Positions 6,686 through 58,294 of a stretch of DNA of 64,000 nucleotides are shown here, in pieces (positions within the stretch are counted from its first letter, which is position 1; every line of letters starts with the position of its first letter). The stretch is from an uncultured Desulfatibacillum sp. (GTDB lineage: Bacteria; Desulfobacterota; Desulfobacteria; Desulfobacterales; SpSt-501). Both the position numbers and the translations under genes were made by a program. The notes under the pieces are model-generated. The model saw only the letters and a list, made by a program, of their open reading frames with translations. It did not search any database and was not told where the DNA came from. Location of the stretch: NCBI GenBank assembly GCA_964573635.1, contig CAZNKG010000005.1, positions 29,759 through 93,758 on the forward strand, read 5' to 3'.

Positions 6686-7171
6686 CTACTCCTTCGGGTG
6701 GCACCCCGCGCAGGTCGTCGGCCCCGTCTTGGGCAGCGGCTTCTTCAGCGTTTGGAGGGATCTTTCGAGGGCGGCGCTCTTGGCCTTCATCTCCTTGTGG
6801 CAGCCGATGCACTGCTTGTGGTAGGCGGTCTTGAAGTAGGCCATGACGGCCTCCTCGTCGACCTTCTCGCCCGGCTTCGCCTTGGGGATCTCGGTCTGGT
6901 CGTGGCAGCCGGAGGTCATGCAGCCGACGATGGGCTCGGTCAGGCCCCAGGTGTGGTGGCAGGAGACGCAGGTGAAGTCGAAATGCTTGGCATGCCGGAA
7001 TTCCACGGCGGCGCGCTTGGGCTCGACCCCGTCCGGGGCCTTGAGCTCGATGACGCCCATCGGAACGCACATCTCCTCCTTGGCGCTCGAGCCCGAAAAA
7101 ACCTGGGCAGCGCCCAGAAGCCCGAACGCCGCCACCCCGAGGATCACCCGCCCGACGCTGCACTTTCCCAT
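6686..7171 (-). CDS. Tetraheme class III cytochrome c (cytochrome c3)
   Basis: Signal peptide; heme motifs CVSCHH, CMTSGCH, CIGCH, CAGCH; distal His in FRHAKH and AYH. Confidence 0.93.
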   Translation of the reverse strand: MGKCSVGRVILGVAAFGLLGAAQVFSGSSAKEEMCVPMGVIELKAPDGVEPKRAAVEFRHAKHFDFTCVSCHHTWGLTEPIVGCMTSGCHDQTEIPKAKPGEKVDEEAVMAYFKTAYHKQCIGCHKEMKAKSAALERSLQTLKKPLPKTGPTTCAGCHPKE

Positions 7172-7360: not shown

Positions 7361-9193
7361 TCAGGCAGGCAGGCGGATGGTGAAGGTGCAGCCGGGGCCG
7401 GGGTTGTTCGACGCCGACACCTCCCCGCCCAGGAGCGCCACGAAGCGCCGCACCAGGGCAAGCCCGATCCCGGTCCCCCCGGCGGCCCCCGAGGCGGCCG
7501 CCTTCGAGCGGTAGAAGTCGTGGAACACCTTTTTCAAGTCCGCCGGCGGGATCCCGGGGCCGGTGTCGGAGAGCTCGATCCGCACCCGGCGGCCCTCTTC
7601 GGCGAGGCGGATGGCGATGTGCTTCTGCGGCGATGAGCGGCCGAACTTGACGCTGTTCTCGACCAGGTTGATGAGCACCTGGACCATGATCTCGCGGTCG
7701 TAGCGGAAGGGGCGCGCGAGCCGGTTCTCGACCGTGAGCGCGAACCCGCCCTGCCGCAGCCCCTCCTCCATGAGCCCGCGCACCTCCTCCAGCACATCCT
7801 CGAAGCTTCCGCTGCGCAGCTCGGGCCGGCGGTGCCGCTTCTCGAGCCGCGAGAGCTCGAGAACGCTTCCGATCAGCCGCGACAGCCGCGCCCCTTCGGA
7901 CTGCAGGATGCGGAAGTAGTCCCGCTCGCGCTCGGGGTCCCGGGCCATGCCCTGCTCCAGCATCTCGATGTACATGCGGATGTTGGTGAGCGGCGTCTTG
8001 AGCTCGTGGGTGACCGAGGAGACGAAGCGCGCCTGGCGCTCCGAGAAGTCGACGATCTTGCGGGCGCCCATGTAGATCGCGGCGACCCCCAGGAGGAACA
8101 CGGCGGCGAGCGCGGCGAGCAGCCGGTTCAGCGTCGCCCGACCGGCGGCGGCCGGGATCCGCTCGCAGGCGAGCGCCGCGCGCAGAAAGCCGAAGGGCGG
8201 AGCGAAGGAGCGCTCGAGCGCGAAGCGCGCCTCCCGGACCGGAACCCCGGCATCGAACCGCTTCACGGGCCGCCCCTGGTCGAGGGCCTCGAGGCGCAGG
8301 CGCGCGAATCCCGTCATGGGCTGGGAGGCGAAATAGGTGCCGGCCAGGTGGCCGAGGAGCGCGTCCACATCCAGCAGGAACCCCTGCCGGTGGATGCGGC
8401 CGTCGATGAGCACGCGCCGGAAGATGAAAACGCGGCTGTCGGTCAGGAACATGGATTGCAGCGGCGCCCCCTCGAATGCGGCGGCGGCCTCCACCAAATC
8501 CGGCTCCGGGCGCCTCTCTTCGAAAAACCCCGGCGCGTGCGCATAGCTCGACGCATAGCTCGACCTCCGCTTGCCGCCGGCCGGCGGCGCCGGCGGGGCC
8601 GTCCGCGACTCCGCGCGATCCTCGCGCATCAAGAGCTCTCTCTCGGGCGCCGGCGGCGGAACGGACGGGCCCCGCTGGAAGGCCGAGAGGTCGAGGTATC
8701 TTCCGGCGAAGGCCTTCGCCTGCGCCTTGCTTTCATCCTGGCCCGCGGCGACGGGCTCCTCGCGGACCCAGTCGGTTTTCTCGGCCCGCTTGCGGTTGAA
8801 GAGGCGGTTGGCCGCCTCGATCTCGGCCAGGCGTCCGGCCCGGTCGGAGGCTCCGGCCGCCGGTGCGGCCGTGTGCGGCGTCTGGAAGGAGCCGTCGGGG
8901 TTGTTCTGGAAGTAGCCCCGCACGAACCCCTCGGCGGGAAAGCGGGCCAGGCCGGCGGCGCCGGCGGTGTAGGCCTCGACCGGCCGCCCCTCCTCGCGGC
9001 GCACCGTCTCGGCAAGCGCCCCCTCGATCTCGTCGAACAGGGTCTCGGCGAAAAAACCCAAGGCGGCGGCCTCCTCGGCCTGCATGCCCCGGTAGGCGTG
9101 CCCGGCGAGAATGCCGAGGGGCACCGCGAGCGCCAGCCCGAAGAGCAGGATCAGCCGGGGAAGCGTGATCTGGCGTAAAAGCTCCTTCGGCAT
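7361..9193 (-). CDS. Membrane sensor histidine kinase
   Basis: Two TM helices flanking a large periplasmic domain; H-box SVTHELKTPL, N-box NLVENSVKF, DTGPGI, GTGIGL; start set at ATG 9193 (MPKELL). Confidence 0.92.
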   Translation of the reverse strand: MPKELLRQITLPRLILLFGLALAVPLGILAGHAYRGMQAEEAAALGFFAETLFDEIEGALAETVRREEGRPVEAYTAGAAGLARFPAEGFVRGYFQNNPDGSFQTPHTAAPAAGASDRAGRLAEIEAANRLFNRKRAEKTDWVREEPVAAGQDESKAQAKAFAGRYLDLSAFQRGPSVPPPAPERELLMREDRAESRTAPPAPPAGGKRRSSYASSYAHAPGFFEERRPEPDLVEAAAAFEGAPLQSMFLTDSRVFIFRRVLIDGRIHRQGFLLDVDALLGHLAGTYFASQPMTGFARLRLEALDQGRPVKRFDAGVPVREARFALERSFAPPFGFLRAALACERIPAAAGRATLNRLLAALAAVFLLGVAAIYMGARKIVDFSERQARFVSSVTHELKTPLTNIRMYIEMLEQGMARDPERERDYFRILQSEGARLSRLIGSVLELSRLEKRHRRPELRSGSFEDVLEEVRGLMEEGLRQGGFALTVENRLARPFRYDREIMVQVLINLVENSVKFGRSSPQKHIAIRLAEEGRRVRIELSDTGPGIPPADLKKVFHDFYRSKAAASGAAGGTGIGLALVRRFVALLGGEVSASNNPGPGCTFTIRLPA

Positions 9194-9912: not shown

Positions 9913-9960
9913 CGTCCACCGCCGCCTCTGGATCACCATTCTAAGCCAGGCCGGCGCCGG

Positions 9961-10015
9961 TTCAAAGCAAAAGTTTCGCAAAAACCGGCGCCTTCCGTTT
10001 TTGCACTTCTTTGAA
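9961..10015. promoter_or_regulatory. AT-rich imperfect inverted repeat in divergent promoter region
   Basis: TTCAAAG..GCAAAAA-CCGG / CCG-TTTTTGC..CTTTGAA; GCAAAA also repeated directly at 11-bp spacing (9967, 9978). Confidence 0.35.
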
Positions 10016-10121
10016 TTGCCATCCACCGCGTCCTCCCCCACAATGGTAGAAAAGCGGGAAGCCGCATGCAGCAACTCTTTCGCGCCGGAAATCACTTCAA
10101 CCGCCGCACAAGGAGCACGCC

Positions 10122-11531
10122 ATGAAGAAGAATCGTTTGAAGCCGCTCGGGCTGCTCGCCGCCCTGATCGCCGTCACCGCCGCCGCCCTCGGTCTCGAGG
10201 GCCGGGGCGGACCGCGGGCGCTTCCGCCGGAGCCCCCGACCGCGGCCGGAAGCGGCGGGATCGCCCTCTCCGCCCGGCTCGTCCAGCAGGCCGTCCTCAA
10301 GGGCACGGCGGGAAGGGTTTCCCTCGCCCTCACGCTCTCCGCCGATCCCGGCGCCGCGGGCCCCGCCCCGGAAGGCCGCGGGATCGATCTCGTCGTCGTC
10401 CTCGACCGCAGCGGCTCGATGGAGGGGCCGAAGATCGCCTACGCCCGACAGGCCCTTTTGAAGCTTCTCTCCGAGATGGCGCCGCAGGACCGCTTCGCGC
10501 TGCTGACCTATGCGGACGGCGTCGAGACGCCCGTTCCCCTGCTCGCCGCGGAGGGCGCCGACCGCCGCCGGATGCTCGCGGCCGTGGAGGCGGTCCGCGC
10601 CGGCGGCGCCACCAACCTCGGCGCGGGCCTCCAGGCGGGGATCGACCTGCTGGCCGCCGCCGGCAGCGGCGCCCGCCCGGGCCGGATCCTCCTGGTCTCC
10701 GACGGGCTCGCCAACCGCGGGGTCACCGACCCACAGGCCTTGGCGCGGATGGCCTCGGCCGCCGCCGAGCGGACGCTGGCGGTCAGCACCGTGGGCGTGG
10801 GCGCCGACTTCCACGAGCTCCTCATGACCGCGATCGCCGACCGCGGCGCGGGGAGCTACACCTACCTCGAAAACCCTTCGGCGTTCGCGGAGGCCTTCCG
10901 CCGGGAGTTCCTCTTCGCATCCGCCGCGGCGGCCACCGGGATCGTCGTGAGCGTCGACCTGCCCCCGGATGTCGCGCTCCTCGACGCGGCCGGCTACCCG
11001 GTGGCGACCGACGGCCGCCGGGCCTTCTTCCCGGCGGGGGCGATCGGCCGCGGCCAAACCCGGCAGCTCTTTCTCACCTTCCGCGTCCCCACGGACCGGG
11101 AGGCGGAGTTCGCCCTGGGGCGCATCGCGGCAAGCTTCCATGCCGGCGGCCGCCCGGCGGAGGTCCGCCTGGCAACCCCCCTCACCGTGGCCTGCGTCGC
11201 GGATGAAACCCGCGCGCACGCCTCGATCGACCGCGGCCTGTGGGAGAAGAAAGTCCTTATCGAGGACTACAACCGCCTGAAGGAGGAGGTCGCCGCCGAC
11301 ATCCGCTTCGGCCGCCGGGAGCAGGCCCGGAAGCGGGTGACAAGCTACTGCGCGGAGCAGGGGCGGGTGAACGCCTTCATGCACTCCGACATCGTTGCGC
11401 AGAACATCGAAAAAGAGGTGAAGGCCCTCGAGGAACGCGTCGACGAAGCCTTCGCGGCGCCCCCGGCCGCGGCCTCGCCGGCCGCGAAGTCGCTGCAGTT
11501 CGAGGGCTACTCCGGCCGCCGCGGACAATAA
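10122..11531 (+). CDS. Exported/anchored von Willebrand factor A domain protein (YfbK-like)
   Basis: Signal/anchor; MIDAS DRSGSM, TNLGAGL, LLVSDG; GGAG RBS. Confidence 0.88.
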   Translation: MKKNRLKPLGLLAALIAVTAAALGLEGRGGPRALPPEPPTAAGSGGIALSARLVQQAVLKGTAGRVSLALTLSADPGAAGPAPEGRGIDLVVVLDRSGSMEGPKIAYARQALLKLLSEMAPQDRFALLTYADGVETPVPLLAAEGADRRRMLAAVEAVRAGGATNLGAGLQAGIDLLAAAGSGARPGRILLVSDGLANRGVTDPQALARMASAAAERTLAVSTVGVGADFHELLMTAIADRGAGSYTYLENPSAFAEAFRREFLFASAAAATGIVVSVDLPPDVALLDAAGYPVATDGRRAFFPAGAIGRGQTRQLFLTFRVPTDREAEFALGRIAASFHAGGRPAEVRLATPLTVACVADETRAHASIDRGLWEKKVLIEDYNRLKEEVAADIRFGRREQARKRVTSYCAEQGRVNAFMHSDIVAQNIEKEVKALEERVDEAFAAPPAAASPAAKSLQFEGYSGRRGQ

Positions 11532-11555
11532 GGACAACCAACCGGAGAAGCGCCC

Positions 11556-12110
11556 ATGGAGACCATCCTCTTCTCGATCGCCTTCGCCGCATCGGCCGGC
11601 AGCGCCGCCGGCCTCCTGATGCTGATCGCCGGCCCCTGGGTCGGGGCCATGCCGGCCGCCCACGCCGGGGTGCTCCTGTGCCTGGCGGCCTATGCCGGAT
11701 GGTGCGGCGGCCGGTGGGGGCGCGGGGCTTCGGAGATGGCGCCGCTCTTCCTCGTCCTGGGGGCGGCGCTCCCCTTCGCCGGCCCCGCCAAGCTTGCCGC
11801 GGCCGCGCCGGCGGCCGCGGCCCTCGCCTGGCTGCGAAGCGGCCCGGGCCGGCCGGGGACGCCGCTCGGCCGGATGGCGGTCGAGGTGCTCCTCAACGGG
11901 GGCGGGCTCGCCCTCGCGGCGGCCTTCCGCCCGCAGGGCCCCCTCGCCTGGGGGCTCGCCGTCGCGCTTTTCTTCCTGGTCCAGGCGCTTTATCTTCCGC
12001 TCGCGCGGCCGGAGGATTTCGGCGCCCGGCGGCGGCAGGAACTGGCGCGCTTCGCCCGCGCGCACGCGCGCGCCGAGCGCGCCTTCAAACGCCTGGCGGG
12101 CGGACCGTGA
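11556..12110 (+). CDS. Hypothetical integral membrane protein
   Basis: About 5-6 hydrophobic helices; GGAGAAG RBS; directly follows the vWA gene. Confidence 0.72.
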   Translation: METILFSIAFAASAGSAAGLLMLIAGPWVGAMPAAHAGVLLCLAAYAGWCGGRWGRGASEMAPLFLVLGAALPFAGPAKLAAAAPAAAALAWLRSGPGRPGTPLGRMAVEVLLNGGGLALAAAFRPQGPLAWGLAVALFFLVQALYLPLARPEDFGARRRQELARFARAHARAERAFKRLAGGP

Positions 12111-12218
12111 CGGCGGAGGCCGACGAAAGGACTTGCCGGCGGGCGGATAAATGCGATAACGCTGTGCCGAGGCGCCCCCGCCGCCGCCGCGTTGAGCCCG
12201 CGATCCAAGGAGACCGCC

Positions 12219-12914
12219 ATGACGCCCCGTTTCGCTCCTCCCCCGGATGCCGCCCGCAGCGGGAAGCTCGAGCTCGTCCTCAAATGCGACGTCGCCGGAA
12301 CCGAGGAGGCCGTGCGCGCGACGCTCGCGGCGATCGGCCCGGCGGCCGGGGTCGAGGTGCGGGTGGTGCACGCCGGGCTCGGGCCCGTATCGAAGTCCGA
12401 CGTCCTCATGGCCACGACCGCCGGCCGCCTGATCCTCGGCTTCAACGTCGATGTCCAGGGCCAGCTCGAGCCCCATCTCCGCGAGCAGGGGGTCGAGGTA
12501 CGGCTCTACGCGACGATCCACCGCCTCGCCGAGGATGTGCGGCGCATCGCCGCCGAGCTCCTGCCCCCCGAGCCCAAGGAGACCGTCACCGGCCAGGCCC
12601 GCGTCATCGAGCTCTTCAAAAGCAGCCGCAAGGGGGTCATCATCGGCTGCGAGGTGACCGCCGGGCTGATCGAAAAAGGGAAGAGCTTCCGCGTCATCGG
12701 CCCGATGGGCCCGGCCTACACCGGTCGGATCGAGTCCCTGCACATCGCCGGAAGCGAGGTCGACCAAGGCCGGGTCGGCCAGCAGGTCGGCATCAAGATC
12801 CCCGACTGGAAAAAGGCCCGGATCGGGGACCTCGTCGAGTGCTTCGAGCCCCCGCGGCCGGCGGCCGCCGCCCGCTGGCGTCCGCGCGGCGGGGTGTTTC
12901 GATTTCCGCCCTGA
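12219..12914 (+). CDS. Stand-alone translation initiation factor IF-2 C-terminal (domains III+IV) homolog lacking the GTPase domain
   Basis: AAGGAG RBS before ATG 12219; LKCDVAGTEEAV, GLGPVSKSDV, ILGFNV, GCEVTAG, IESL, GDLVECFE parallel the IF2 C-terminal motifs; no P-loop. Confidence 0.8.
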   Translation: MTPRFAPPPDAARSGKLELVLKCDVAGTEEAVRATLAAIGPAAGVEVRVVHAGLGPVSKSDVLMATTAGRLILGFNVDVQGQLEPHLREQGVEVRLYATIHRLAEDVRRIAAELLPPEPKETVTGQARVIELFKSSRKGVIIGCEVTAGLIEKGKSFRVIGPMGPAYTGRIESLHIAGSEVDQGRVGQQVGIKIPDWKKARIGDLVECFEPPRPAAAARWRPRGGVFRFPP

Positions 12915-12930
12915 CAGGAGCCCGCGCACC

Positions 12931-13251
12931 ATGCACATCCGCTTCGTCTACATGACCTTTGCCTCCGCCGAGGAGGCGCGGCGGGTCGGCCGGCAGCTCG
13001 TCGGCGAGCGGCTGGCCGCCTGCGTGAACGTCTTCCCGCAGATGACCTCGATCTACAGCTGGGAGGGGAAGATGGAGGAGAGCGCCGAGGCGGTGGCGAT
13101 CGCCAAGACCACCAAGGCGCGGGTCTCCGCGCTCATCGCGCGGGTCAAAAGCCTGCACGCCTACAGCTGCCCCTGCATCGTGAGCCTTCCGGTCACGCGG
13201 GGATACCGGCCCTTCCTCGAGTGGATCGCGGCCTCGGTCGCCGACGCCTGA
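12931..13251 (+). CDS. cutA: Divalent-cation tolerance protein CutA
   Basis: LAACVN, SIYSWEGK, HAYSCPCI motifs; about 106 aa; AGGAG RBS. Confidence 0.95.
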   Translation: MHIRFVYMTFASAEEARRVGRQLVGERLAACVNVFPQMTSIYSWEGKMEESAEAVAIAKTTKARVSALIARVKSLHAYSCPCIVSLPVTRGYRPFLEWIAASVADA

Positions 13252-37518: not shown

Positions 37519-39528
37519 CTACCCCACGACTGCGAGCACATCGCCCTTCTTGACCGAGTCCCCGCTGCTGAAGTGGACGGCCTTGAGCTTGCCGCCGGCC
37601 GGGGACGGCAGGGCGTTCTCCATTTTCATCGCCTCGAGCACGACGAGCGGCTCACCCTCCTCGACCGGGTCGCCCACGTTCTTGAGATACTTGACGATCA
37701 TCCCCGGCATAGGGGCGACGAGCGGGGTTCCCGTGGCGGCGCCCGCCGCGGGCTGCTCCGCGGCGGCCGGGGCCGGGGCGGCGGCGGGCTTCGCCGGCTC
37801 GGGCGCCGGGGCCAAAGCCGGGGCCGGGGCCGCAGCCGGCGCCGGGGCGGCGGCGGCCGCCGCCCGGGGGGTGACGGCGACCGGGGCGCCGCCGACCGGG
37901 TCGACGCCCACCTCGAAGTATTCGCCGTCCACGAACACGTTGAACTTGCGCAGAGATTCGCTTGCGGCGGGCGCTTTTTTGGCGGGCTTCTCGACCAGCA
38001 GCCCCGCCTTCGCCTTGCGCACGAGCTCGTCCTCGCGTCGGACCTCCTCCATGGTGCGCGGCTTGGTTTCGGCCGGCGGCTGTTCCTGGCCGTACTTCCA
38101 TTTCAGGAATTTCAAGCCGGTGACGGGGTAGAGCGCGTAGATGAGCACGTCGTCCAGGTCCCGGGCGAGGCCCTTGGTGGCCTCCTTGGCCTTCTCGAGC
38201 TCCGGCTCGAGGACCGAGGCCGCGCGCGCGGTGATCGGCTTCTCGCCGCGGGCGTAGCCCTTGAGGGCCTTCTTCTGGACCTCGGGGTTGATCGGGACGG
38301 CGGTCTTCCCGTAGAGCCCGTAGCAGAGGTCCTTCACCTGGTCGGTGATCATCTTGTAGCGCTCCTGCGGGGTGTCGAAGAGGACGTTGTTCACCGTCTG
38401 CACCCCGACGATCTGGCTGGTGGGCGTCACGAGCGGGATCTGCCCGAGGTCCTTGCGCACCCGCGGCAGCTCGGCGAAGACCTCGTCGATGCGGTCCACG
38501 GCGTCCATCTGCTTGAGCTGGTTGACGAGATTGGAGAGCATCCCGCCGGGGGTCTGGTGCAGGAGCACGTTGATGTCGATGATCGCCATCTTCGTGTCGT
38601 CGAGCAGGTGCTTGTACTTGGGCATGACCTCTTTTTCGAGCACCTCGTTGATGGCGGCGAGCAGCTTGATGTCGAAGCCGGTGTCGCGGCTGGTGCCGAG
38701 CAGCGTCATCACGAGCGGCTCGATCGCGGCGTGCGAGGTGCGGTAGGCGTAGGGGGCCATCACGGTGTCGATGATGTCCACGCCGGCCTCGATCGCCTTG
38801 AGCATCGACATCGCCGACATGCCCGAGGTGAAGTGGCTGTGCAGGTGGATGGGGGGCTTGACCGCCTTCTTCAGGGCGAGCACGAGGTGGTAGGCGTCGT
38901 AGGGGGCGATGAGCCCGGCCATGTCCTTGATGCAGATGCTGTCGGCCCCCATCGACTCGAGGTCCTTCGCCTTCTTGACGTAGTAGTCGATGTTGTACAC
39001 CTCGCCGCCGAGGCGCGGCTCGGTCATCGTGTAGCAGATGCAGCCCTGGAAGTGCTTTTTCGCGGCCTTGATCGCCGGCACGACGACCTCGAAGTTGCGG
39101 TAGTCGTTCAGGGCGTCGAAGGTGCGGAAGATGTCCATGCCGTTCGCCGCCGCGCGCTCGACGAAGGCCTTGGCGACGTCGTCGGCGTAGTTGCGGTAGC
39201 CGACGAGGTTCTGGCCGCGCAGCAGCATCGAAAAGGGGGTTTTCTTGATGTAGCGCTTGAGCGTGCGGATCCGCTCCCAGGGGTCCTCGTTCAGGAACCG
39301 GTGCATGGTGTCGAAGGTCGCGCCCCCCCAGACCTCCATGGCCCAGAACCCGACCTCGTCCATCATCTCCGCCACCGGGAGCATGTCCTCGGTCCGGCCG
39401 CGGGTGGCGAAGAGCGACTGGTGCCCGTCGCGCAGCGACAGATCCTCGATCTTGACCGGGTTCTCGGCTTTGGGCCGGTTCTTCTCGTACTTCATGGCGG
39501 TCATCTTGACGGCGTTTCCGTTGCTCAT
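37519..39528 (-). CDS. Pyruvate/oxaloacetate carboxyltransferase (5S-type) fused to biotin carboxyl carrier
   Basis: LRDGHQS, EVWGGATFD, IKDMAG, HLHSH, PLVTPTSQIVG, Ala/Pro linker, EAMKM biotinylation site. Confidence 0.92.
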   Translation of the reverse strand: MSNGNAVKMTAMKYEKNRPKAENPVKIEDLSLRDGHQSLFATRGRTEDMLPVAEMMDEVGFWAMEVWGGATFDTMHRFLNEDPWERIRTLKRYIKKTPFSMLLRGQNLVGYRNYADDVAKAFVERAAANGMDIFRTFDALNDYRNFEVVVPAIKAAKKHFQGCICYTMTEPRLGGEVYNIDYYVKKAKDLESMGADSICIKDMAGLIAPYDAYHLVLALKKAVKPPIHLHSHFTSGMSAMSMLKAIEAGVDIIDTVMAPYAYRTSHAAIEPLVMTLLGTSRDTGFDIKLLAAINEVLEKEVMPKYKHLLDDTKMAIIDINVLLHQTPGGMLSNLVNQLKQMDAVDRIDEVFAELPRVRKDLGQIPLVTPTSQIVGVQTVNNVLFDTPQERYKMITDQVKDLCYGLYGKTAVPINPEVQKKALKGYARGEKPITARAASVLEPELEKAKEATKGLARDLDDVLIYALYPVTGLKFLKWKYGQEQPPAETKPRTMEEVRREDELVRKAKAGLLVEKPAKKAPAASESLRKFNVFVDGEYFEVGVDPVGGAPVAVTPRAAAAAAPAPAAAPAPALAPAPEPAKPAAAPAPAAAEQPAAGAATGTPLVAPMPGMIVKYLKNVGDPVEEGEPLVVLEAMKMENALPSPAGGKLKAVHFSSGDSVKKGDVLAVVG

Positions 39529-39615
39529 GGATGCGGTCTCCTGTATGCGTTGTAAGGTGGCGAATGTCCCGTCATCGCGGCGCCCGCCTCCGCGCCGGGC
39601 ATGCGGCCGCCGGCG

Positions 39616-39825
39616 TCAGGCCCGGCGGTTGAAGGCGCGCAGCTGCATGAGGCCCCTGAGCTGCATCTGGCCCTGGCGCCCGGCGAGCGACCAGGGCATC
39701 GGCCCGGCCGCTGCGGGCGCGGCCGCCGGGCCCGGTTCGGCCGCCGCGGCCTGCTCGGCTTCGATCTGAAGGTAGGCGGAAACCGCGGCGATCGCCGCGG
39801 CGAGCTTTCTGGCGGAGTCGTGCAT
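39616..39825 (-). CDS. Small carboxylase-associated protein (epsilon/delta-subunit-like, 69 aa)
   Basis: KLAAAIAAVSAYL...PWSLAGR; lies between two carboxyltransferase genes; GGGG RBS. Confidence 0.65.
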   Translation of the reverse strand: MHDSARKLAAAIAAVSAYLQIEAEQAAAAEPGPAAAPAAAGPMPWSLAGRQGQMQLRGLMQLRAFNRRA

Positions 39826-39893
39826 ATCCCCCCCTGCCGGTGTGGCGCGCTGCCCGCCCCCGCTGCGGATGCCGGGCGGGCGGGTTCAAACCG

Positions 39894-41447
39894 CTACATC
39901 GGGATGTTGCCGTGCTTCTTGGGCGGCCGCATCTCGCGCTTGGCGCACAGGGCCTCCAGCGCGTCGATCAGCCGCGGCCGGGTTTCGCTCGGCACGATCA
40001 CGGCGTCGATGTAGCCCCGGGCGGCGGCGACGTACGGGTTCGAGAACAGCGTCTCGTACTCCGCGATCTTCTCGCGCCGCTTGGCGGCGGGGTCGGCGGC
40101 CTCGCTGATCTCCTTGCGGTGGATGATGTTCGCCGCGCCCTCGGCGCCCATCACGGCGATCTCGGCCGTCGGCCAGGCGAAGGCCATGTCCGCCCCGAGG
40201 TCGCGCGAGCACATGGCGAGGTAGCTCCCGCCGTAGTCCTTGCGGGTGACGAGCAAAAGCTTCGGCACCGTGGCCTCGGAGTAGCACCACAAGAGCTTCG
40301 CGCCGTGGCGGATGATGCCCCCCCACTCCTGGTTGCTCCCCGGCAGGTAGCCGGGGACGTCGGCGATGGTGAGCATCGGGATGTTGAACGCGTCGCAGAA
40401 GCGGATGAAGCGCGTCGCCTTGTCGGAGGCGTTGATGTCGAGGCAGCCGGCGAGGTACTTGGGCTGGTTGGCGATGATCCCGATCGTGCGCCCGTTCAGC
40501 CGCGCGAAGGCGACGATGATGTTCGGGGCGAAATGCTGGTGCGGCTCGAGGAACTCCCCGCCGTCGACGATCCCGCGGATCACGGCCTTCATGTCGTAGG
40601 GCCGGTTGGGGTTGTCGGGGATGAGCGCGTCGAGCGCCGGATCGCACCGGCGCGGGTCGTCGCCCGTCGCCCGGATGGGGGGGTCCTCCATGTTGTTCGC
40701 CGGCAGGTAGGAGAGCAGCCGGCGGATCTGGTCGAGGCAGTCGGCGTCGTTCTCGCAGGCGAAGTGGGCGACCCCGCTCTTCTCGTTGTGGGTTTTCGCG
40801 CCGCCCAGCTCCTCGAAGCTGATCTCCTCGCCGGTGACCGACTTGATCACCTCCGGGCCGGTGATGAACATGTAGCTCGTCTTCTTGACCATGAAGATGA
40901 AATCGGTCATCGCCGGGGAGTAGACCGCGCCGCCGGCCGTCGGGCCCATGATGGCCGAGATCTGCGGGATGACCCCGGAGCTGGCCGAATTGCGGAAGAA
41001 GATCTGGCCGTAGCCCGAAAGGGCGTCGACGCCCTCCTGGATCCGCGCGCCGCCGGAGTCGTTCAGCCCGACGAAGGGCGCCCCCGCCTTGAGGGCGAGG
41101 TCCATGACCTTGCAGATCTTGCGCGAGTGCATCTCGCCCAGGGAGCCCGCCCGCGAGGTAAAGTCCTGGGCGAAGGCGAAGACCGGCCGGCCCTCCACCA
41201 GCCCGTGCCCGGTGATGACGCCGTCGGAGGGGATGTCGACCTTCTGCATGTCGAAATTGACGCAGCGGTGGCTCACGAACATGTCGAGCTCGCGGAAGCT
41301 GCCGGGGTCGAAGAGCCGGTTGAGCCGCTCGCGGGCGTTCAGCTTGCCCTTCTCGCGGTGCTGGGCCACGGCCTTGTCGCCGCCCATCTTGAGCATCCGC
41401 GCTTCGCGGTCCTTGAGGTCCTGGATCTTATCGGCGGTGGTTCCCAT
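39894..41447 (-). CDS. Methylmalonyl-/propionyl-CoA carboxyltransferase (12S/beta-type)
   Basis: DSGGARIQEG, GPTAGGAVYSPA, DVPGYLPG, KHGNIPM. Confidence 0.95.
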   Translation of the reverse strand: MGTTADKIQDLKDREARMLKMGGDKAVAQHREKGKLNARERLNRLFDPGSFRELDMFVSHRCVNFDMQKVDIPSDGVITGHGLVEGRPVFAFAQDFTSRAGSLGEMHSRKICKVMDLALKAGAPFVGLNDSGGARIQEGVDALSGYGQIFFRNSASSGVIPQISAIMGPTAGGAVYSPAMTDFIFMVKKTSYMFITGPEVIKSVTGEEISFEELGGAKTHNEKSGVAHFACENDADCLDQIRRLLSYLPANNMEDPPIRATGDDPRRCDPALDALIPDNPNRPYDMKAVIRGIVDGGEFLEPHQHFAPNIIVAFARLNGRTIGIIANQPKYLAGCLDINASDKATRFIRFCDAFNIPMLTIADVPGYLPGSNQEWGGIIRHGAKLLWCYSEATVPKLLLVTRKDYGGSYLAMCSRDLGADMAFAWPTAEIAVMGAEGAANIIHRKEISEAADPAAKRREKIAEYETLFSNPYVAAARGYIDAVIVPSETRPRLIDALEALCAKREMRPPKKHGNIPM

Positions 41448-41543
41448 CGGCGCTGTTCCTTTCCCCCGGTTGCGCCGGGCGCCGGGGGCAGGAATCCCCG
41501 GCGCGCCTCGGCGTTGTTGTCGAGCCTTAAATTTTCATTGATT

Positions 41544-42536
41544 CTAGTTTTGATTATTATTGTCAAGCAAAAAAATGAGGTCGGCGGCGGCGGCGGCCGG
41601 GGCCCGGCGCCCGGCCGCCACGTCGCGGGCGACGCGCGGGATCTGGCGCTTGACCTCGGGATGGCGCAGGAAGCGCTCCTTGAGCGCCTCGTCGATGAGC
41701 GACCACATCCAGTCGACGGCCTGCTGCCGTCGCTTGGCCTCGAGCCCGCCGGTCCGGGAGAGGATCGCGCGGTGGTCGAGAACGGTTTTCCAGACGGCCT
41801 CGACGCCGCGGCCCTCGAGGGCGCTCACGGCGAGCACCGGCGGGCGCCACTCGGAGCTCGCGGGCGACAGCAGGTGCATCGCCATCTCGAAGACCCGCAC
41901 GGCCTTCTTCGCGCGGGCGAGGTTGTCGCCGTCCGCCTTGGTGACCGCCAGCGCGTCGGCGAGCTCGAGGATCCCCTTCTTGATCCCCTGCAGCTCGTCG
42001 CCCGCCCCGGCGAGCAGGAGCACGAGGAAGAAGTCGACCATCGCCGCGACGGCCGTCTCCGACTGCCCGACCCCCACCGTCTCCACGATGATGACGTCGT
42101 AGCCGGCGGCCTCGCAGACCAGGGCGGTCTCGCGGGTCTTGCGCGCCACCCCGCCCAGGGTGCCGCCGGAGGGGGAGGGCCGGATGTAGGCCGCCGCCTG
42201 GGTGGCGAGCCGCTCCATGCGCGTCTTGTCCGCCATGACGCTGCCGCCGCTGCGGGCGCTCGAGGGATCGACCGCGAGCACCGCCACGCGGTGGCCGCGG
42301 CCGACGAGCAGCATGCCGAGGCTTTCGATGAAGGTGCTCTTGCCCACGCCGGGGACCCCGGTGATCCCGAGGCGCACGGCCTTCCCGGTGTGCGGCAAAA
42401 GCGCGGCGAGGATCCGCCGGGCGGCCTCCTGGTGGGTGGCGAGCGAGCTTTCGACGAGCGTGATCGTCTTGGAGATCAGCCGCCGGTCGCCGGCGAGCAC
42501 GCCGTCGATGTACGTCCGGGTGTCGACTGGTTTCAT
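41544..42536 (-). CDS. meaB: Methylmalonyl-CoA mutase-associated GTPase MeaB
   Basis: GITGVPGVGKST, AVDPSS, GGSVMADKTRM, ETVGVGQSE, TKAD. Confidence 0.95.
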   Translation of the reverse strand: MKPVDTRTYIDGVLAGDRRLISKTITLVESSLATHQEAARRILAALLPHTGKAVRLGITGVPGVGKSTFIESLGMLLVGRGHRVAVLAVDPSSARSGGSVMADKTRMERLATQAAAYIRPSPSGGTLGGVARKTRETALVCEAAGYDVIIVETVGVGQSETAVAAMVDFFLVLLLAGAGDELQGIKKGILELADALAVTKADGDNLARAKKAVRVFEMAMHLLSPASSEWRPPVLAVSALEGRGVEAVWKTVLDHRAILSRTGGLEAKRRQQAVDWMWSLIDEALKERFLRHPEVKRQIPRVARDVAAGRRAPAAAAADLIFLLDNNNQN

Positions 42537-42618
42537 CCGCCATCCGCCGCCGGCCGCCGGGCGGGCGGACCGCCGCCCGGCTGCCGTCCGGCCCCGCGCC
42601 GCCGTGCCGCGCCCGCCG

Positions 42619-44751
<2,133 letters not shown>

Positions 44752-56290: not shown

Positions 56291-58255
56291 TCAGTAGGCG
56301 AGGCGGCCGAGCGACTTGAGGATCAGGGTCGCGCCCATGGCGAACATGCCCATGAGGCCCATGCCGCAGGAGAACCCCGCCAGGAGCACGGGGGCGTACT
56401 GGCGCCACATGGCGCCGTAGCGCTTGAGGAAATAAAAGCGGCCGAGCAGCGCGCCGACGACCTCCAGGACGAGCCCGTGCGGGGTGCTCTGGCCCAGCCC
56501 CCGCACCATGCCGTAGACCAGCATGATCGGCAGCCCGAAGAGGGAGAGCACGGCGTAGGTGAGCGTTCCGAGAAGCGCCCCGGCGCCGACGTAGACCCAG
56601 TTGAGCGCCTGGAAGAAAAGGGAGTTGCCCTCCAGCGTCGAGGTCTGCATGAGCAGCGTGTTCAGCGCCTGCAGGTGCCAGAGCTCCTGGGCGAAGGGAT
56701 AGGCCGCCGAGGGGATGGGGGCGAGCCGCCAGATGAACTGCGAGAAGAGCAGGCTGGCGATCATCACCACCGGGAAGACCACGATCTCGCTCTTGATGAT
56801 CCCGCGGATGCTCGTGCCGGTCAGCTCGATCTCGCGGAAGGAGACCGTGGCGCTGCCGTAGTTGTGGATCGGGATGGGCGCGTACCAGATCTCGATCCCC
56901 TGGTAGCCGAAATACTTCGCCCCGGCGATGAAGCTCGCCTCGCGCACGAGCGGCAGGCTGACGAACTGCCCGGCGATCCCCTCCATCCGGGCGGTGACGT
57001 AGGAGAGGACCGGGGTGTAGACGAACCCGTAGAGCAGGAAGAAGACGACCGGGAAATTGGGCACGAGCCAGACGCAGAGCAGCACGTAGGAGAGCGTCGA
57101 GAAGACGTAGATGCCGACCGAGATCCAGAAGTTGAAGTCGCCCCGGCCGGGCGGGGGGCGGAAGAGGTCGCGCCAGCTTCCGGGGCCCGCCTCGCCGCCG
57201 CGGCGGCGGAAGGAGCGCGCCACGTGCCCGATCCCCACCAGCGCGATGGCGAGACCGAGGCCGATCGAGAAGCTCAGGTAGAAGTCGAAGTTGTTGGCGA
57301 AGACCGTCTCGACGGTCCGCATGCCCGGGTGCCAGCGGGTCAAGATCCCGTGGTGGTAGAGGACGGGGTTGGCGACGAGGGTCACGATCAGCCCGCCCAG
57401 CCCCCCGATGACCGCCCAGAAGGGCAGCACCATCCCGATGAAGACGAGCCCGAGATCGAGCTGCAGCCCGGTGGCGACCGCGGGCAGCCACTCCTCGGTG
57501 TGGCCGGTGAGATCGATCCAGGGGATGGGGATCAGCCGGATCGGCTCCATCAGGACGAGCCCCGAGACGGCCGGCAGCAGGACGTAGATCCCGCCGAAGA
57601 AGAGCCCGACGGCCCCGCCGATCGAAAAAACCCGCCATTTCCAGCTGCGCTCGCGCTCCTCGGTCGATTCGGCGAGCGCGAGCGTCCCCAGCGCGGCGAC
57701 CGGCGCCATGGGGAAGGGGAGCTTCTCGACGTCGGAGGTGATGCGGTAGAGGGCGTACCCCAGCCCGAACTGGTCGATGCGGGTGATGATCTGGGTCCCG
57801 ATCAAGAGCAGGATCGGGATCAGCCAGTCGCGGTGGAAAAAGGTGCGCTCGGCGAGCGCCGCGGACTCCGGCGGGGGCGCGACCCACAGGGGGATGTATT
57901 CGGTCAGCCCGAGCATGCGCGCGGCGTCCGACTGGACGAGGTACTGGTTCCACAGCAGCCCCTGGAACGGGGTGTGCAGGGCCGCCCCGGCCATATAGTA
58001 GAGCAGGAAGATCTCCTGCTGCTGCATGTCGCTGTAGGAGCGCTTGGCAAGCTCCGCGAACAGGATGATCGTCACCCAGCGCGCGGCCGGCCCGATGCCG
58101 GTGCCGATCACCAGCTGCAGGTACATGCTGCCGGGCATCATCAGGAAGCCGATGAAGACCGCCCCGACGATCGTGCGCCAGTCGAAGCCCTCCTCGAAGG
58201 CGCTCGGCGTCTTCAAGAGGTCCCGGTACTCCTGGAGCTCCTTGTCCTCTTTCAT
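56291..58255 (-). CDS. Polytopic membrane protein, OPT/YSL-like putative peptide transporter
   Basis: About 15 TM helices; FEEGFDWRTIVGAVF, ARWVTIILF, LPFPMAPV (similar to OPT 'LxFP'), WYAPIP; GGAG RBS before ATG 58255. Confidence 0.7.
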   Translation of the reverse strand: MKEDKELQEYRDLLKTPSAFEEGFDWRTIVGAVFIGFLMMPGSMYLQLVIGTGIGPAARWVTIILFAELAKRSYSDMQQQEIFLLYYMAGAALHTPFQGLLWNQYLVQSDAARMLGLTEYIPLWVAPPPESAALAERTFFHRDWLIPILLLIGTQIITRIDQFGLGYALYRITSDVEKLPFPMAPVAALGTLALAESTEERERSWKWRVFSIGGAVGLFFGGIYVLLPAVSGLVLMEPIRLIPIPWIDLTGHTEEWLPAVATGLQLDLGLVFIGMVLPFWAVIGGLGGLIVTLVANPVLYHHGILTRWHPGMRTVETVFANNFDFYLSFSIGLGLAIALVGIGHVARSFRRRGGEAGPGSWRDLFRPPPGRGDFNFWISVGIYVFSTLSYVLLCVWLVPNFPVVFFLLYGFVYTPVLSYVTARMEGIAGQFVSLPLVREASFIAGAKYFGYQGIEIWYAPIPIHNYGSATVSFREIELTGTSIRGIIKSEIVVFPVVMIASLLFSQFIWRLAPIPSAAYPFAQELWHLQALNTLLMQTSTLEGNSLFFQALNWVYVGAGALLGTLTYAVLSLFGLPIMLVYGMVRGLGQSTPHGLVLEVVGALLGRFYFLKRYGAMWRQYAPVLLAGFSCGMGLMGMFAMGATLILKSLGRLAY

Positions 58256-58294
58256 ACTCCGCCCGGCGCCGCGCAGGCGGCGCAAACCGGCATG

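Follow-up and report, generated by a model that had tools for sequence, protein, structure and literature searches.

What does a protein do that consists of domains III and IV of translation initiation factor 2 (IF2) and of nothing else of IF2? This question is raised by an open reading frame (ORF) at positions 12219–12914 of a 64,000-nucleotide stretch of contig CAZNKG010000005.1 (assembly GCA_964573635.1) from an uncultured Desulfatibacillum sp., referred to here as the window. A preliminary description, made from the sequence, had read the ORF as a GTPase-less IF2 paralog with an altered pocket for formylmethionyl-tRNA (fMet-tRNA). According to our analysis, the gene is almost certainly a functional member of an old, unnamed family that goes back to a duplication of the 3′ half of infB and is kept in Desulfobacterota and Nitrospirota. 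Tentatively, we read its product as a GTP-independent, RNA-binding translation accessory factor.

The protein contains IF2 domains III and IV only

The 231-residue protein was compared with domain family libraries, with protein structures, and with full-length IF2. The Pfam family IF-2 (PF11987) matched residues 16–107 (E = 2e-22; 79.8 bits against a cut-off of 27), and matches to the EF-Tu D2/D4 barrels at residues 132–204 were below the Pfam threshold. The NCBIfam model TIGR00487 was covered only at positions 385–578 of 587, with 137.7 bits against a cut-off of 424.4. Archaeal NCBIfam models gave 23–50 bits, compared to the 137.7 bits of TIGR00487, which places the sequence affinity with bacterial IF2. 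Residues 688–881 of E. coli IF2 aligned with residues 16–210 (E about 1e-29), and the IF2 sequences in PDB (E. coli, P. aeruginosa, T. thermophilus, and mitochondrial) aligned with residues 14–222. The isolated IF2 domains C1 (1z9b) and C2 (1d1n) each matched one half of the protein; domain IV aligned with residues 3–93 of 1d1n (E = 3e-9) and with residues 790–881 of E. coli IF2. The AlphaFold model of the protein had a mean predicted local distance difference test score (pLDDT) of 86.5, and its top 29 Foldseek matches were IF2, mitochondrial IF2, aIF5B, or eIF5B. In Foldseek, the model was nearer to extended IF2 (TM 0.49–0.58) than to compact IF2-GDP (TM 0.41–0.42), a weak preference at a predicted TM-score (pTM) of 0.58. 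The Pfam, NCBIfam, PDB, and AlphaFold/Foldseek results all agree with the earlier assignment of the ORF to domains III and IV. The four motif pairs quoted in the preliminary description (LKCDVAGTEEAV/LKADVQGSVEAI, RVIELF/EVRDVF, SLHIAGSEV/SLRRFKDDV, and QVGI/ECGI) are present in the E. coli alignment.

The other parts of IF2 were missing. Pfam GTP_EFTU did not match the 231-residue protein, and G-domain motifs (P-loop type, DTPGH) were found in no frame of the 64-kb window, so that the reported lack of a P-loop holds for all frames. Ten full-length IF2 queries matched the window at 12246–12848 only, via their last ~195 residues, and revealed no other IF2 remnant there, in line with the reported lack of an upstream remnant. 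The domain II barrel, which is the 30S anchor of IF2, is missing as well: the TIGR00487 match starts at position 385, and the protein begins ~15 residues before domain III. Of the features that define IF2, the protein has domains III and IV; it has no G domain, no domain II, no fMet-A76 pocket, and no sufficient whole-protein score. It is therefore not to be annotated as IF-2.

The gene is intact and belongs to a family under purifying selection

The coding sequence is complete and lies on the forward strand, as do all parts of the gene described below. It extends from the ATG at 12219 to the TGA at 12912–12914, encodes 231 amino acid residues, and represents a stand-alone paralog of IF2 domains III and IV. 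A Shine-Dalgarno-like AAGGAG, read from the sequence at 12207–12212, is located 6 nt 5′ of the ATG. The intact ORF and its own ribosome-binding site had thus been correctly recognized in the preliminary description. The G+C content at the three codon positions of 12219–12914 was 0.72/0.50/0.90, and the same pattern was observed in the other real genes of the window (overall G+C content, 69.7%), which were selected by third-position G+C (GC3) > 0.80 and second-position G+C (GC2) < 0.62. Long ORFs in other frames overlap the real genes, such as 10092–12938 (reverse strand, 948 aa) and 11240–12955 (forward strand, 571 aa). They are high-G+C artefacts, because they failed the codon-position filter, and are a possible trap for gene callers.

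The match to the C-terminal third of IF2, together with the label "translation initiation factor IF-2" that the Joint Genome Institute (JGI) attaches to such proteins, would suit an infB pseudogene fragment, a split infB, or a mis-assembly. An identical 231-residue protein was called on seven public contigs from at least two JGI samples, one contig being 196.8 kb long, and its neighbors match those of the window in the two places where they are shown. This argues against mis-assembly.

Relatives were sought among 5.8 billion proteins, by profile among 1.84 billion representatives, and by a genome scan with one genome per species. The protein search returned >120 same-length homologs (218–264 aa, 52–99% identity, >88% coverage). 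In the genome scan, a relative turned up in at least 112 species-level genomes, from Desulfobacterota and Nitrospirota; the 80 that were retrieved were all metagenome-assembled genomes (MAGs) or single-amplified genomes (SAGs), labeled as Desulfobacterales, Desulfosarcinaceae, Syntrophobacteraceae, Desulfobulbaceae, Thermodesulfobacteriota, or Nitrospirota/Thermodesulfovibrionales. The homologs, from metagenomes or MAGs, are labeled "hypothetical protein" at NCBI or automatically "translation initiation factor IF-2" at JGI. The family profile matched about 16–20 short clusters (50% identity) through position ~230 with 225–342 bits, whereas full-length IF2 (636–1083 aa) reached at most 188 bits with a match ending at position ~215, leaving a score gap between the two groups. 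Two kinds of profile matches were set aside. Short IF2-type matches proved to be fragments with a normal IF2 pocket, and longer matches, considered as domain fusions that might give a clue, were partial true IF2 or chimeras.

The family was accordingly defined as proteins of about 215–270 aa with domains III and IV only, with the signature residues described below, and with a C-terminal W-x-P-x-x-G. The window copy falls within this definition, with 231 aa, I130, M163-G164-P165, H175-I176, Q188-Q189-V190, and W220, P222, and G225. Over the shared 195 residues, the mean identity was 66% within the family, 47% among IF2, and 33% (range 20%–46%) between the family and IF2. In a neighbor-joining tree, the family including the window copy formed one clan, set apart from IF2 by the longest internal branch (0.135, compared to a median of 0.011). 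By taxon label, the Nitrospirota members formed a single clade, and the others fell into Desulfobulbia, Syntrophobacteria, and Desulfobacterales groups, the last being the sister of the window copy; a gene tree grouped by taxon indicates long vertical maintenance. The ratio of nonsynonymous to synonymous substitution rates (dN/dS) had a median of 0.18 and a maximum of 0.57 (Nei-Gojobori, 276 pairs with dS of 0.1–1.5), as expected for purifying selection. Same-length homologs and dN/dS had both been proposed beforehand as checks on the gene, and both came out in its favor.

A pseudogene fragment, a split infB, or a mis-assembly has, therefore, next to no likelihood. The ORF is intact, with a ribosome-binding site and gene-like codon G+C; its homologs share the length and a family-specific tail and evolve at a dN/dS of about 0.18; the identical gene recurs on seven contigs; a homolog is transcribed (see below); no other IF2 piece was found, either in the 64 kb or in the 1.2 Mb covered by related loci; and a split IF2 would require an fMet pocket, which the protein no longer has. 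The view that the gene is a GTPase-less IF2 paralog and not a decayed fragment, expressed in the preliminary description, is upheld by its own clade, the purifying selection, the transcribed homolog, and the conserved alteration of the pocket.

The fMet pocket of domain IV is rebuilt on a conserved scaffold

For residue-level comparison, 134 family members (133 plus the window copy) were aligned with 93 full-length IF2 sequences and E. coli IF2, each represented by its C-terminal 235 residues. Between residues 42 and 210, adding 671 to the window number gives the E. coli number. The beta-barrel homologous to domain IV (IF2 C2) comprises residues 122–210 (12582–12848), as delineated by the alignment with 1d1n and E. 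coli IF2, by Foldseek, and by conservation. The core of the barrel is kept: G125, A127, F133, G143, C144, V146, G149, R158, G169, S173, L174, V181, G187, G191, D204, and E207.

In E. coli IF2, the residues around fMet-A76 are S844, R846, R847, F848, K849, F804, F809, I812, C815, E860, C861, and G862 (PMC4783127); the equivalents in the G. stearothermophilus pocket are R654, Q655, F657, G667, and E713 (PMC4611024). Enlargement of Gly862 reduces fMet-tRNA binding, since a clash is expected (Sprink et al., PMC4783127). The small or structural pocket residues are kept in the family (F133, I141, G143, C144, S173, and G191). The charged and aromatic fMet contacts are replaced: R801 by I130 (99% of the family), F809 by K138 (87%), R846 by Q/H175, R847 by I176 (78%), F848 by E177 (92%; Ala in the window copy), E860 by Q189 (95%), and C861 by V190 (89%). 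R832, which is invariant in IF2, is replaced by T161 (81%), with Gly161 in the window copy. Among the 94 IF2 sequences, the pocket is conserved at R832 (100%), C861 (100%), E860 (96%), R847 (85%), and K849 (85%). The window pocket thus reads I130, H175/I176/A177/G178, Q189, V190, and G161, compared to the family consensus I, Q/H-I-E-x, Q, V, and T. Residues conserved in the family only are E145, G154, F157, I160, A162-M163-G164-P165, Q188, W197, A200, and C208.

In strand beta1 (residues 130–133, I-E-L-F; 12606–12617), Ile130 stands for Arg801 (R654 in G. stearothermophilus), and Phe133, which corresponds to Phe804, is kept. The beta4-beta5 loop (residues 173–178, S-L-H-I-A-G; 12735–12752) replaces the IF2 loop S844-L-R846-R847-F848-K849 that cradles fMet (PMC4783127). 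Strand beta5 (residues 187–191, G-Q-Q-V-G; 12777–12791) replaces G-x-E860-C861-G862 of IF2; Q188 is conserved in 97%, Q189 in 95%, and V190 in 89% of the family, and G191 is invariant in both the family and IF2. The most diagnostic family motif is a beta-hairpin (residues 159–166; 12693–12716) that reads V-I-G-P-M-G-P-A in the window copy and V-I-T-A-M-G-P-A in the family. It maps to residues 781–788 of P. aeruginosa IF2, which in compact IF2-GDP stack on the N-V-R surface of C1 and contact G2661 of the sarcin-ricin loop (PMC9192638).

Diverse representatives at 50% identity share I130, M-G-P, (H/Q)-I, Q-Q-V/A, and W-x-P, whereas the short IF2-type fragments carry R..R..KRFK..EC. The difference in the fMet-pocket residues, first noted in the window copy, is thus a conserved, non-random alteration across the family.

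Domain III keeps the IF2 signature

The homolog of domain III (IF2 C1) comprises residues 16–112 (12264–12554), as defined by PF11987 (E = 2e-22) and by the column comparison with the 94 IF2 sequences. Nineteen of its columns are at least 80% conserved in both the family and IF2, including K22, D24, G27, E30, A31, G55, D61, A65, G74, F75, R95, Y97, and I100. Position 101 is equivalent to E. coli Tyr772, which adjoins the sarcin-ricin loop (Sprink et al., PMC4783127); it is Tyr in 98% of the family and His101 in the window copy. Because the domain III residues are nearly all kept, the ancestral contacts apparently still matter, be it those with the sarcin-ricin loop, uS12, and 16S rRNA helix h5 or those with the G-domain switch regions.

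The last of these contacts would suit a regulator acting in trans. C1 of IF2-GDP touches switch 2 through its helix H10 (PMC9192638), and a free domain III with an almost fully kept IF2 signature might act on the switch regions of the IF2 G domain, or of another translational GTPase, and so modulate its GTPase activity or its coupling. Such a role leaves the remodeling of domain IV, the basic shift, and the C-terminal tail unexplained. In addition, infB was not co-localized with the gene in any of 84 related loci, in which the sole GTPase neighbor was a SelB-like protein at one locus. We consider regulation of a GTPase in trans very improbable.

The protein is basic and carries family-specific tails

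The N-terminal tail (residues 1–15; 12219–12263) is predicted to be disordered (pLDDT <50 for residues 1–13). Its length varies in the family, and it is rich in K, R, and H in most members and weakly basic in the window copy. In the inter-domain linker (residues 113–121; 12555–12581), the IF2 motif G-L-L-x-P is lost and the pLDDT dips to 72. The basic C-terminal extension (residues 211–231; 12849–12911) is family-specific and lies beyond the end of IF2. It adds about 20 residues (W-x-P-x-x-G) past the IF2 C-terminus, with W220, P222, and G225 being invariant. Two independent AlphaFold models predict a beta-strand in this tail, at residues 225–229 of the window copy and 227–231 of homolog P0009 (pLDDT ~92 in each). 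A docking site of the tail was sought by covariation; the mutual information signal with average product correction was dominated by lineage effects and was not used.

The net charge of the tail is +5 in the window copy and +4.0 on average in the family. Domain IV of the family has a net charge of +5.3, compared to +0.6 in IF2, and the isoelectric point (pI) of the core is 8.4 in the family and 5.5 in IF2. For the whole protein, the median pI is 9.45 (9.43 for the window copy).

A possible role at an RNA 3′ end

The strongly basic character and the kept domain III signature are consistent with a putative interaction of the family with the ribosome or RNA. We infer the binding partners and the physiological effect as follows. 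Domain IV retains the barrel and the A76-side residues of the acceptor-end cradle (F133, I141, G143, C144, S173, and G191), and its fMet contacts are replaced, so that its target may be an RNA 3′ end other than that of fMet-tRNA, such as an unformylated aminoacyl-tRNA, a deacylated tRNA end, or rRNA proximal to the peptidyl transferase center. The pattern of a kept A76 side and a replaced fMet side fits retained 3′-end binding with a changed acyl specificity. Conserved Glu and Gln in place of Phe, Arg, and Glu, and Ile in place of two arginines, remove the positive cradle that the cited work connects with the formyl group. Domain III probably docks where C1 of IF2 docks, in the region of the sarcin-ricin loop, uS12, and helix h5. 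The affinity that IF2 owes to its G domain and domain II may come instead from the added positive charge, from the basic tail at the N-terminus, and from the W-x-P-x-x-G strand. As a net effect, a tRNA end would be held or shielded, or the C-terminal half of IF2 would be outcompeted, and initiation would be tuned without GTP.

Alternatively, the protein might occupy the C1 and C2 sites of IF2 on the ribosome without binding a tRNA end, as an IF2 antagonist, an anti-association factor, or a hibernation-type factor, the last of which had been named in the preliminary description. Some other translation-factor homologs act as hibernation factors. The kept IF2-conserved residues of domain III, including the Tyr772 equivalent, and the strongly basic charge would suit an occupant of these sites, and the most diagnostic family motif falls in the hairpin through which, in compact IF2, domain IV contacts both C1 and the sarcin-ricin loop. 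The strand G-Q-Q-V-G is, however, also among the most conserved parts, as would be expected more of a ligand site than of a steric plug, and the main ribosome anchors of IF2, the G domain and domain II, are missing. Hibernation in particular found no support, as the Pfam, NCBIfam, and PDB matches were of IF2 type only, with no homology to known hibernation factors, and no context linked to stress or stationary phase is conserved. On balance, we regard occupancy of the IF2 sites as doubtful. It is rather unlikely that the family is a second, GTPase-free factor derived from IF2 that handles a non-fMet acceptor end, for example by holding or delivering unformylated initiator tRNA or another acyl-tRNA. 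If true, this would represent a new layer of initiation control or acyl-tRNA handling, made from the tRNA-binding module of IF2. The remaining probability is assigned to explanations outside those named here.

Several points weigh against an RNA-binding accessory factor. The retained Gly, Cys, and Phe on the A76 side could serve folding alone. According to older biochemical work, isolated C1-C2 of IF2 has little ribosome affinity by itself, and the new basic elements must, therefore, do real work for docking. At a pTM of 0.58, the model leaves the relative placement of its two domains uncertain. No RNA run containing the window's own gene was found. The window copy departs from the family at 8 of the 74 positions that are at least 90% conserved, including Tyr to His near the sarcin-ricin loop and Glu to Ala at position 177. 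Because three of these eight deviations are common to its closest relatives (P0002–P0004), the window copy appears to belong to a divergent high-G+C sub-lineage rather than to be a decaying gene.

Genomic context differs between lineages

Both flanking genes are intact and unrelated to IF2, as had been reported. Upstream, a 184-residue, hydrophobic, membrane-like ORF without a family match (11556–12110, forward strand) is the conserved neighbor in Desulfobacterales-type synteny. Downstream, the CutA1 gene (12931–13251, forward strand) follows after 16 nt with its own AGGAG. The same-strand cluster begins with a gene for a VWA-domain protein (10122–11531, forward strand), and a sigma-70-like site (10016–10044) is located 5′ of the cluster. 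No promoter- or terminator-like site was found between the gene and cutA, nor any terminator-like site inside the run from VWA to CutA; in this genome, the gene and cutA are probably co-transcribed. Genes for an OmpR-type response regulator and a histidine kinase are divergent from this run.

To survey the context, all ORFs within ±9 kb of the gene were clustered in 84 loci (1.2 Mb), and recurrent neighbors were searched with Pfam. The gene order of the window recurred in about 17–20 of the 84 loci, each of them of the Desulfobacterales type, and usually with a PspA/IM30 gene in addition. In most of these loci (e.g., L001, 6685–7245; L003, 6797–7360), that gene separates the VWA gene from the ~185-residue membrane gene. 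It is absent from the window (11531–11556), where the VWA and membrane ORFs are 24 nt apart. This order, and the 16 nt to cutA with no terminator-like site between, could indicate a non-translational role, in which the IF2 domains act as a scaffold within an envelope or metal-stress module (two-component system, VWA, PspA, membrane protein, and CutA). The synteny is confined to one lineage, though: the neighbors differ in Syntrophobacteria, Desulfobulbia, and Nitrospirota, the Syntrophobacter gene is transcribed alone, and the window itself is without a PspA gene. The basic charge and the retained IF2 residues point to RNA, and we find a role in such a module improbable.

In one Syntrophobacteraceae group, the neighbors are Maf, NadA, MOSC, Rrf2, and NIL-ferredoxin genes; elsewhere they are an ABC ATPase and a GldG-like gene (Desulfobulbaceae) or a metallophosphoesterase and an M48 peptidase (Nitrospirota). 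No universal partner gene was found across the 84 loci, which fall into six or more lineage-specific syntenies. The function must, therefore, be read from the protein itself. The lack of a conserved partner across lineages also fits a protein that acts on universal components, i.e., the ribosome or tRNA. A RimK-like ATP-grasp gene (PF08443) is located near the gene in 12 loci of two synteny groups (e.g., L055, 8439–9239; L023, L025, L033, and L051). In other bacteria, ribosomal protein S6 is a substrate of RimK-type enzymes, and this neighbor is a weak hint of a translation link. At L057 (a Desulfobulbaceae MAG), the gene at 10001 is directly preceded, on the same strand, by a gene for a SelB-like GTPase that starts at 7911 (forward strand), the only translational GTPase in the 1.2 Mb of related loci. 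No regulatory RNA was recognized with Rfam in the window or in seven related loci, and the window contains no tRNA genes. With PADLOC, one insignificant match was the only sign of a defense-system link. The leader of the gene varies as well. Low-G+C homologs (L003, L007, L010, L011, L015, L058, and others) mostly have no Shine-Dalgarno sequence in the 40 nt before the start; they have A-rich leaders instead (e.g., ...AAAATCAAAAAAATG), whereas the AAGGAG of the window copy is clear.

The DNA of the window gene was found in freshwater and, partly, in hot-spring metagenomes. Transcription was observed for the homolog of Syntrophobacter sp. SbD1 (L075, gene at 9956–10690), which was present in four peat metatranscriptome runs. 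The RNA contigs (9923–10727; 9944–10784; 9920–10341 and 10374–10710) cover only this gene, with a leader of at least 12–36 nt and a short trailer, and the neighbors had a depth of 0 in three of the four runs. The restriction of these contigs (contigs, not reads) to the gene points to a monocistronic mRNA in Syntrophobacter. For the Desulfobacterales homolog at L007, one 220-nt RNA contig inside the gene was found, which is weak evidence. Just 3′ of the L007 gene (5447–5604), 23-nt imperfect inverted repeats (GGTTTCAGGTGTCAGGTGTCAGG / CCCGACACCTGAAACCTGACACC) surround ~107 nt. The repeat ends recur with different inner sequence on many contigs from estuary and rhizosphere metatranscriptomes and in one run of unrecorded type, which suggests a dispersed element resembling a miniature inverted-repeat transposable element.

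Elsewhere in the window, the reverse strand encodes a methylmalonyl-CoA mutase with a B12-binding domain, a carboxyltransferase, and a PYC_OADA/biotin-carrier protein (37519–44751), as well as a class III cytochrome c (6686–7171). This methylmalonyl-CoA cluster and the cytochrome fit a propionate-metabolizing anaerobe of the Desulfobacterota type. A 664-residue ORF on the reverse strand (56291–58285), whose codon G+C is gene-like (GC3 0.97), had no Pfam match at E ≤ 1e-5.

Comparison with known systems

The family is new and uncharacterized, and it is built from known domains. No dedicated model for a stand-alone domain III–IV family exists in Pfam or NCBIfam, and literature searches, including a 2026 preprint on IF2 evolution (PMC12919033), yielded no description of one. 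To judge from the papers and family libraries searched, a naturally occurring IF2 paralog that stands alone and lacks the GTPase has not been described. IF2 belongs to the small set of universal translation factors, and that it should have a conserved, GTPase-less descendant whose tRNA pocket has been redesigned would surprise specialists. The occurrence in two phyla, the purifying selection, the transcription of one member in nature, and the conserved rebuilding of the fMet site make the family worth testing. As a natural experiment, it can show what domains III and IV of IF2 are able to do without GTP, and it may reveal a new initiation regulator or tRNA-end-binding protein in sulfate-reducing and syntrophic anaerobes. 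The automatic label "translation initiation factor IF-2" misleads genome annotation and marker-gene counting.

The known protein most similar in composition is the C-terminal half of bacterial IF2, which has been studied as the autonomous IF2 C fragment of Geobacillus stearothermophilus IF2 and has the same two domains in the same order and about 33% identity over ~195 residues. Its isolated C2 domain folds and binds ligand alone (PMC4611024). In contrast to IF2 C, the family is encoded by a separate gene and is not a proteolytic or engineered piece. It also differs in its other set of conserved pocket residues, the loss of Arg832, the strong basicity, the W-x-P-x-x-G strand, and the basic N-terminal tail.

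E. coli IF2-2 and IF2-3 are shortened forms of IF2 that originate from internal initiation within infB and keep the G domain, domain II, and the fMet pocket. Both these forms and the family are shorter, IF2-derived proteins; the family, however, has neither G domain nor domain II, its gene lies at an unrelated locus, and its sequences make up a separate clade.

Domains III and IV of aIF5B and eIF5B have the same pair of folds (Foldseek). These factors resemble the family in that a C-terminal extension follows domain IV and in that they do not recognize a formyl group. Their extension consists of two alpha-helices, and they possess a G domain (PMC4611024; PMC12919033), whereas the extension of the family is a short predicted beta-strand and its sequence affinity is with bacterial IF2.

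A looser parallel is offered by ArfB, which consists of the release-factor catalytic domain and a basic tail, and by Balon, a hibernation factor. Like the family, they are partial translation-factor paralogs that have lost the decoding or GTPase part and gained basic tails; the likeness is one of analogy only, as the sequences are not related.

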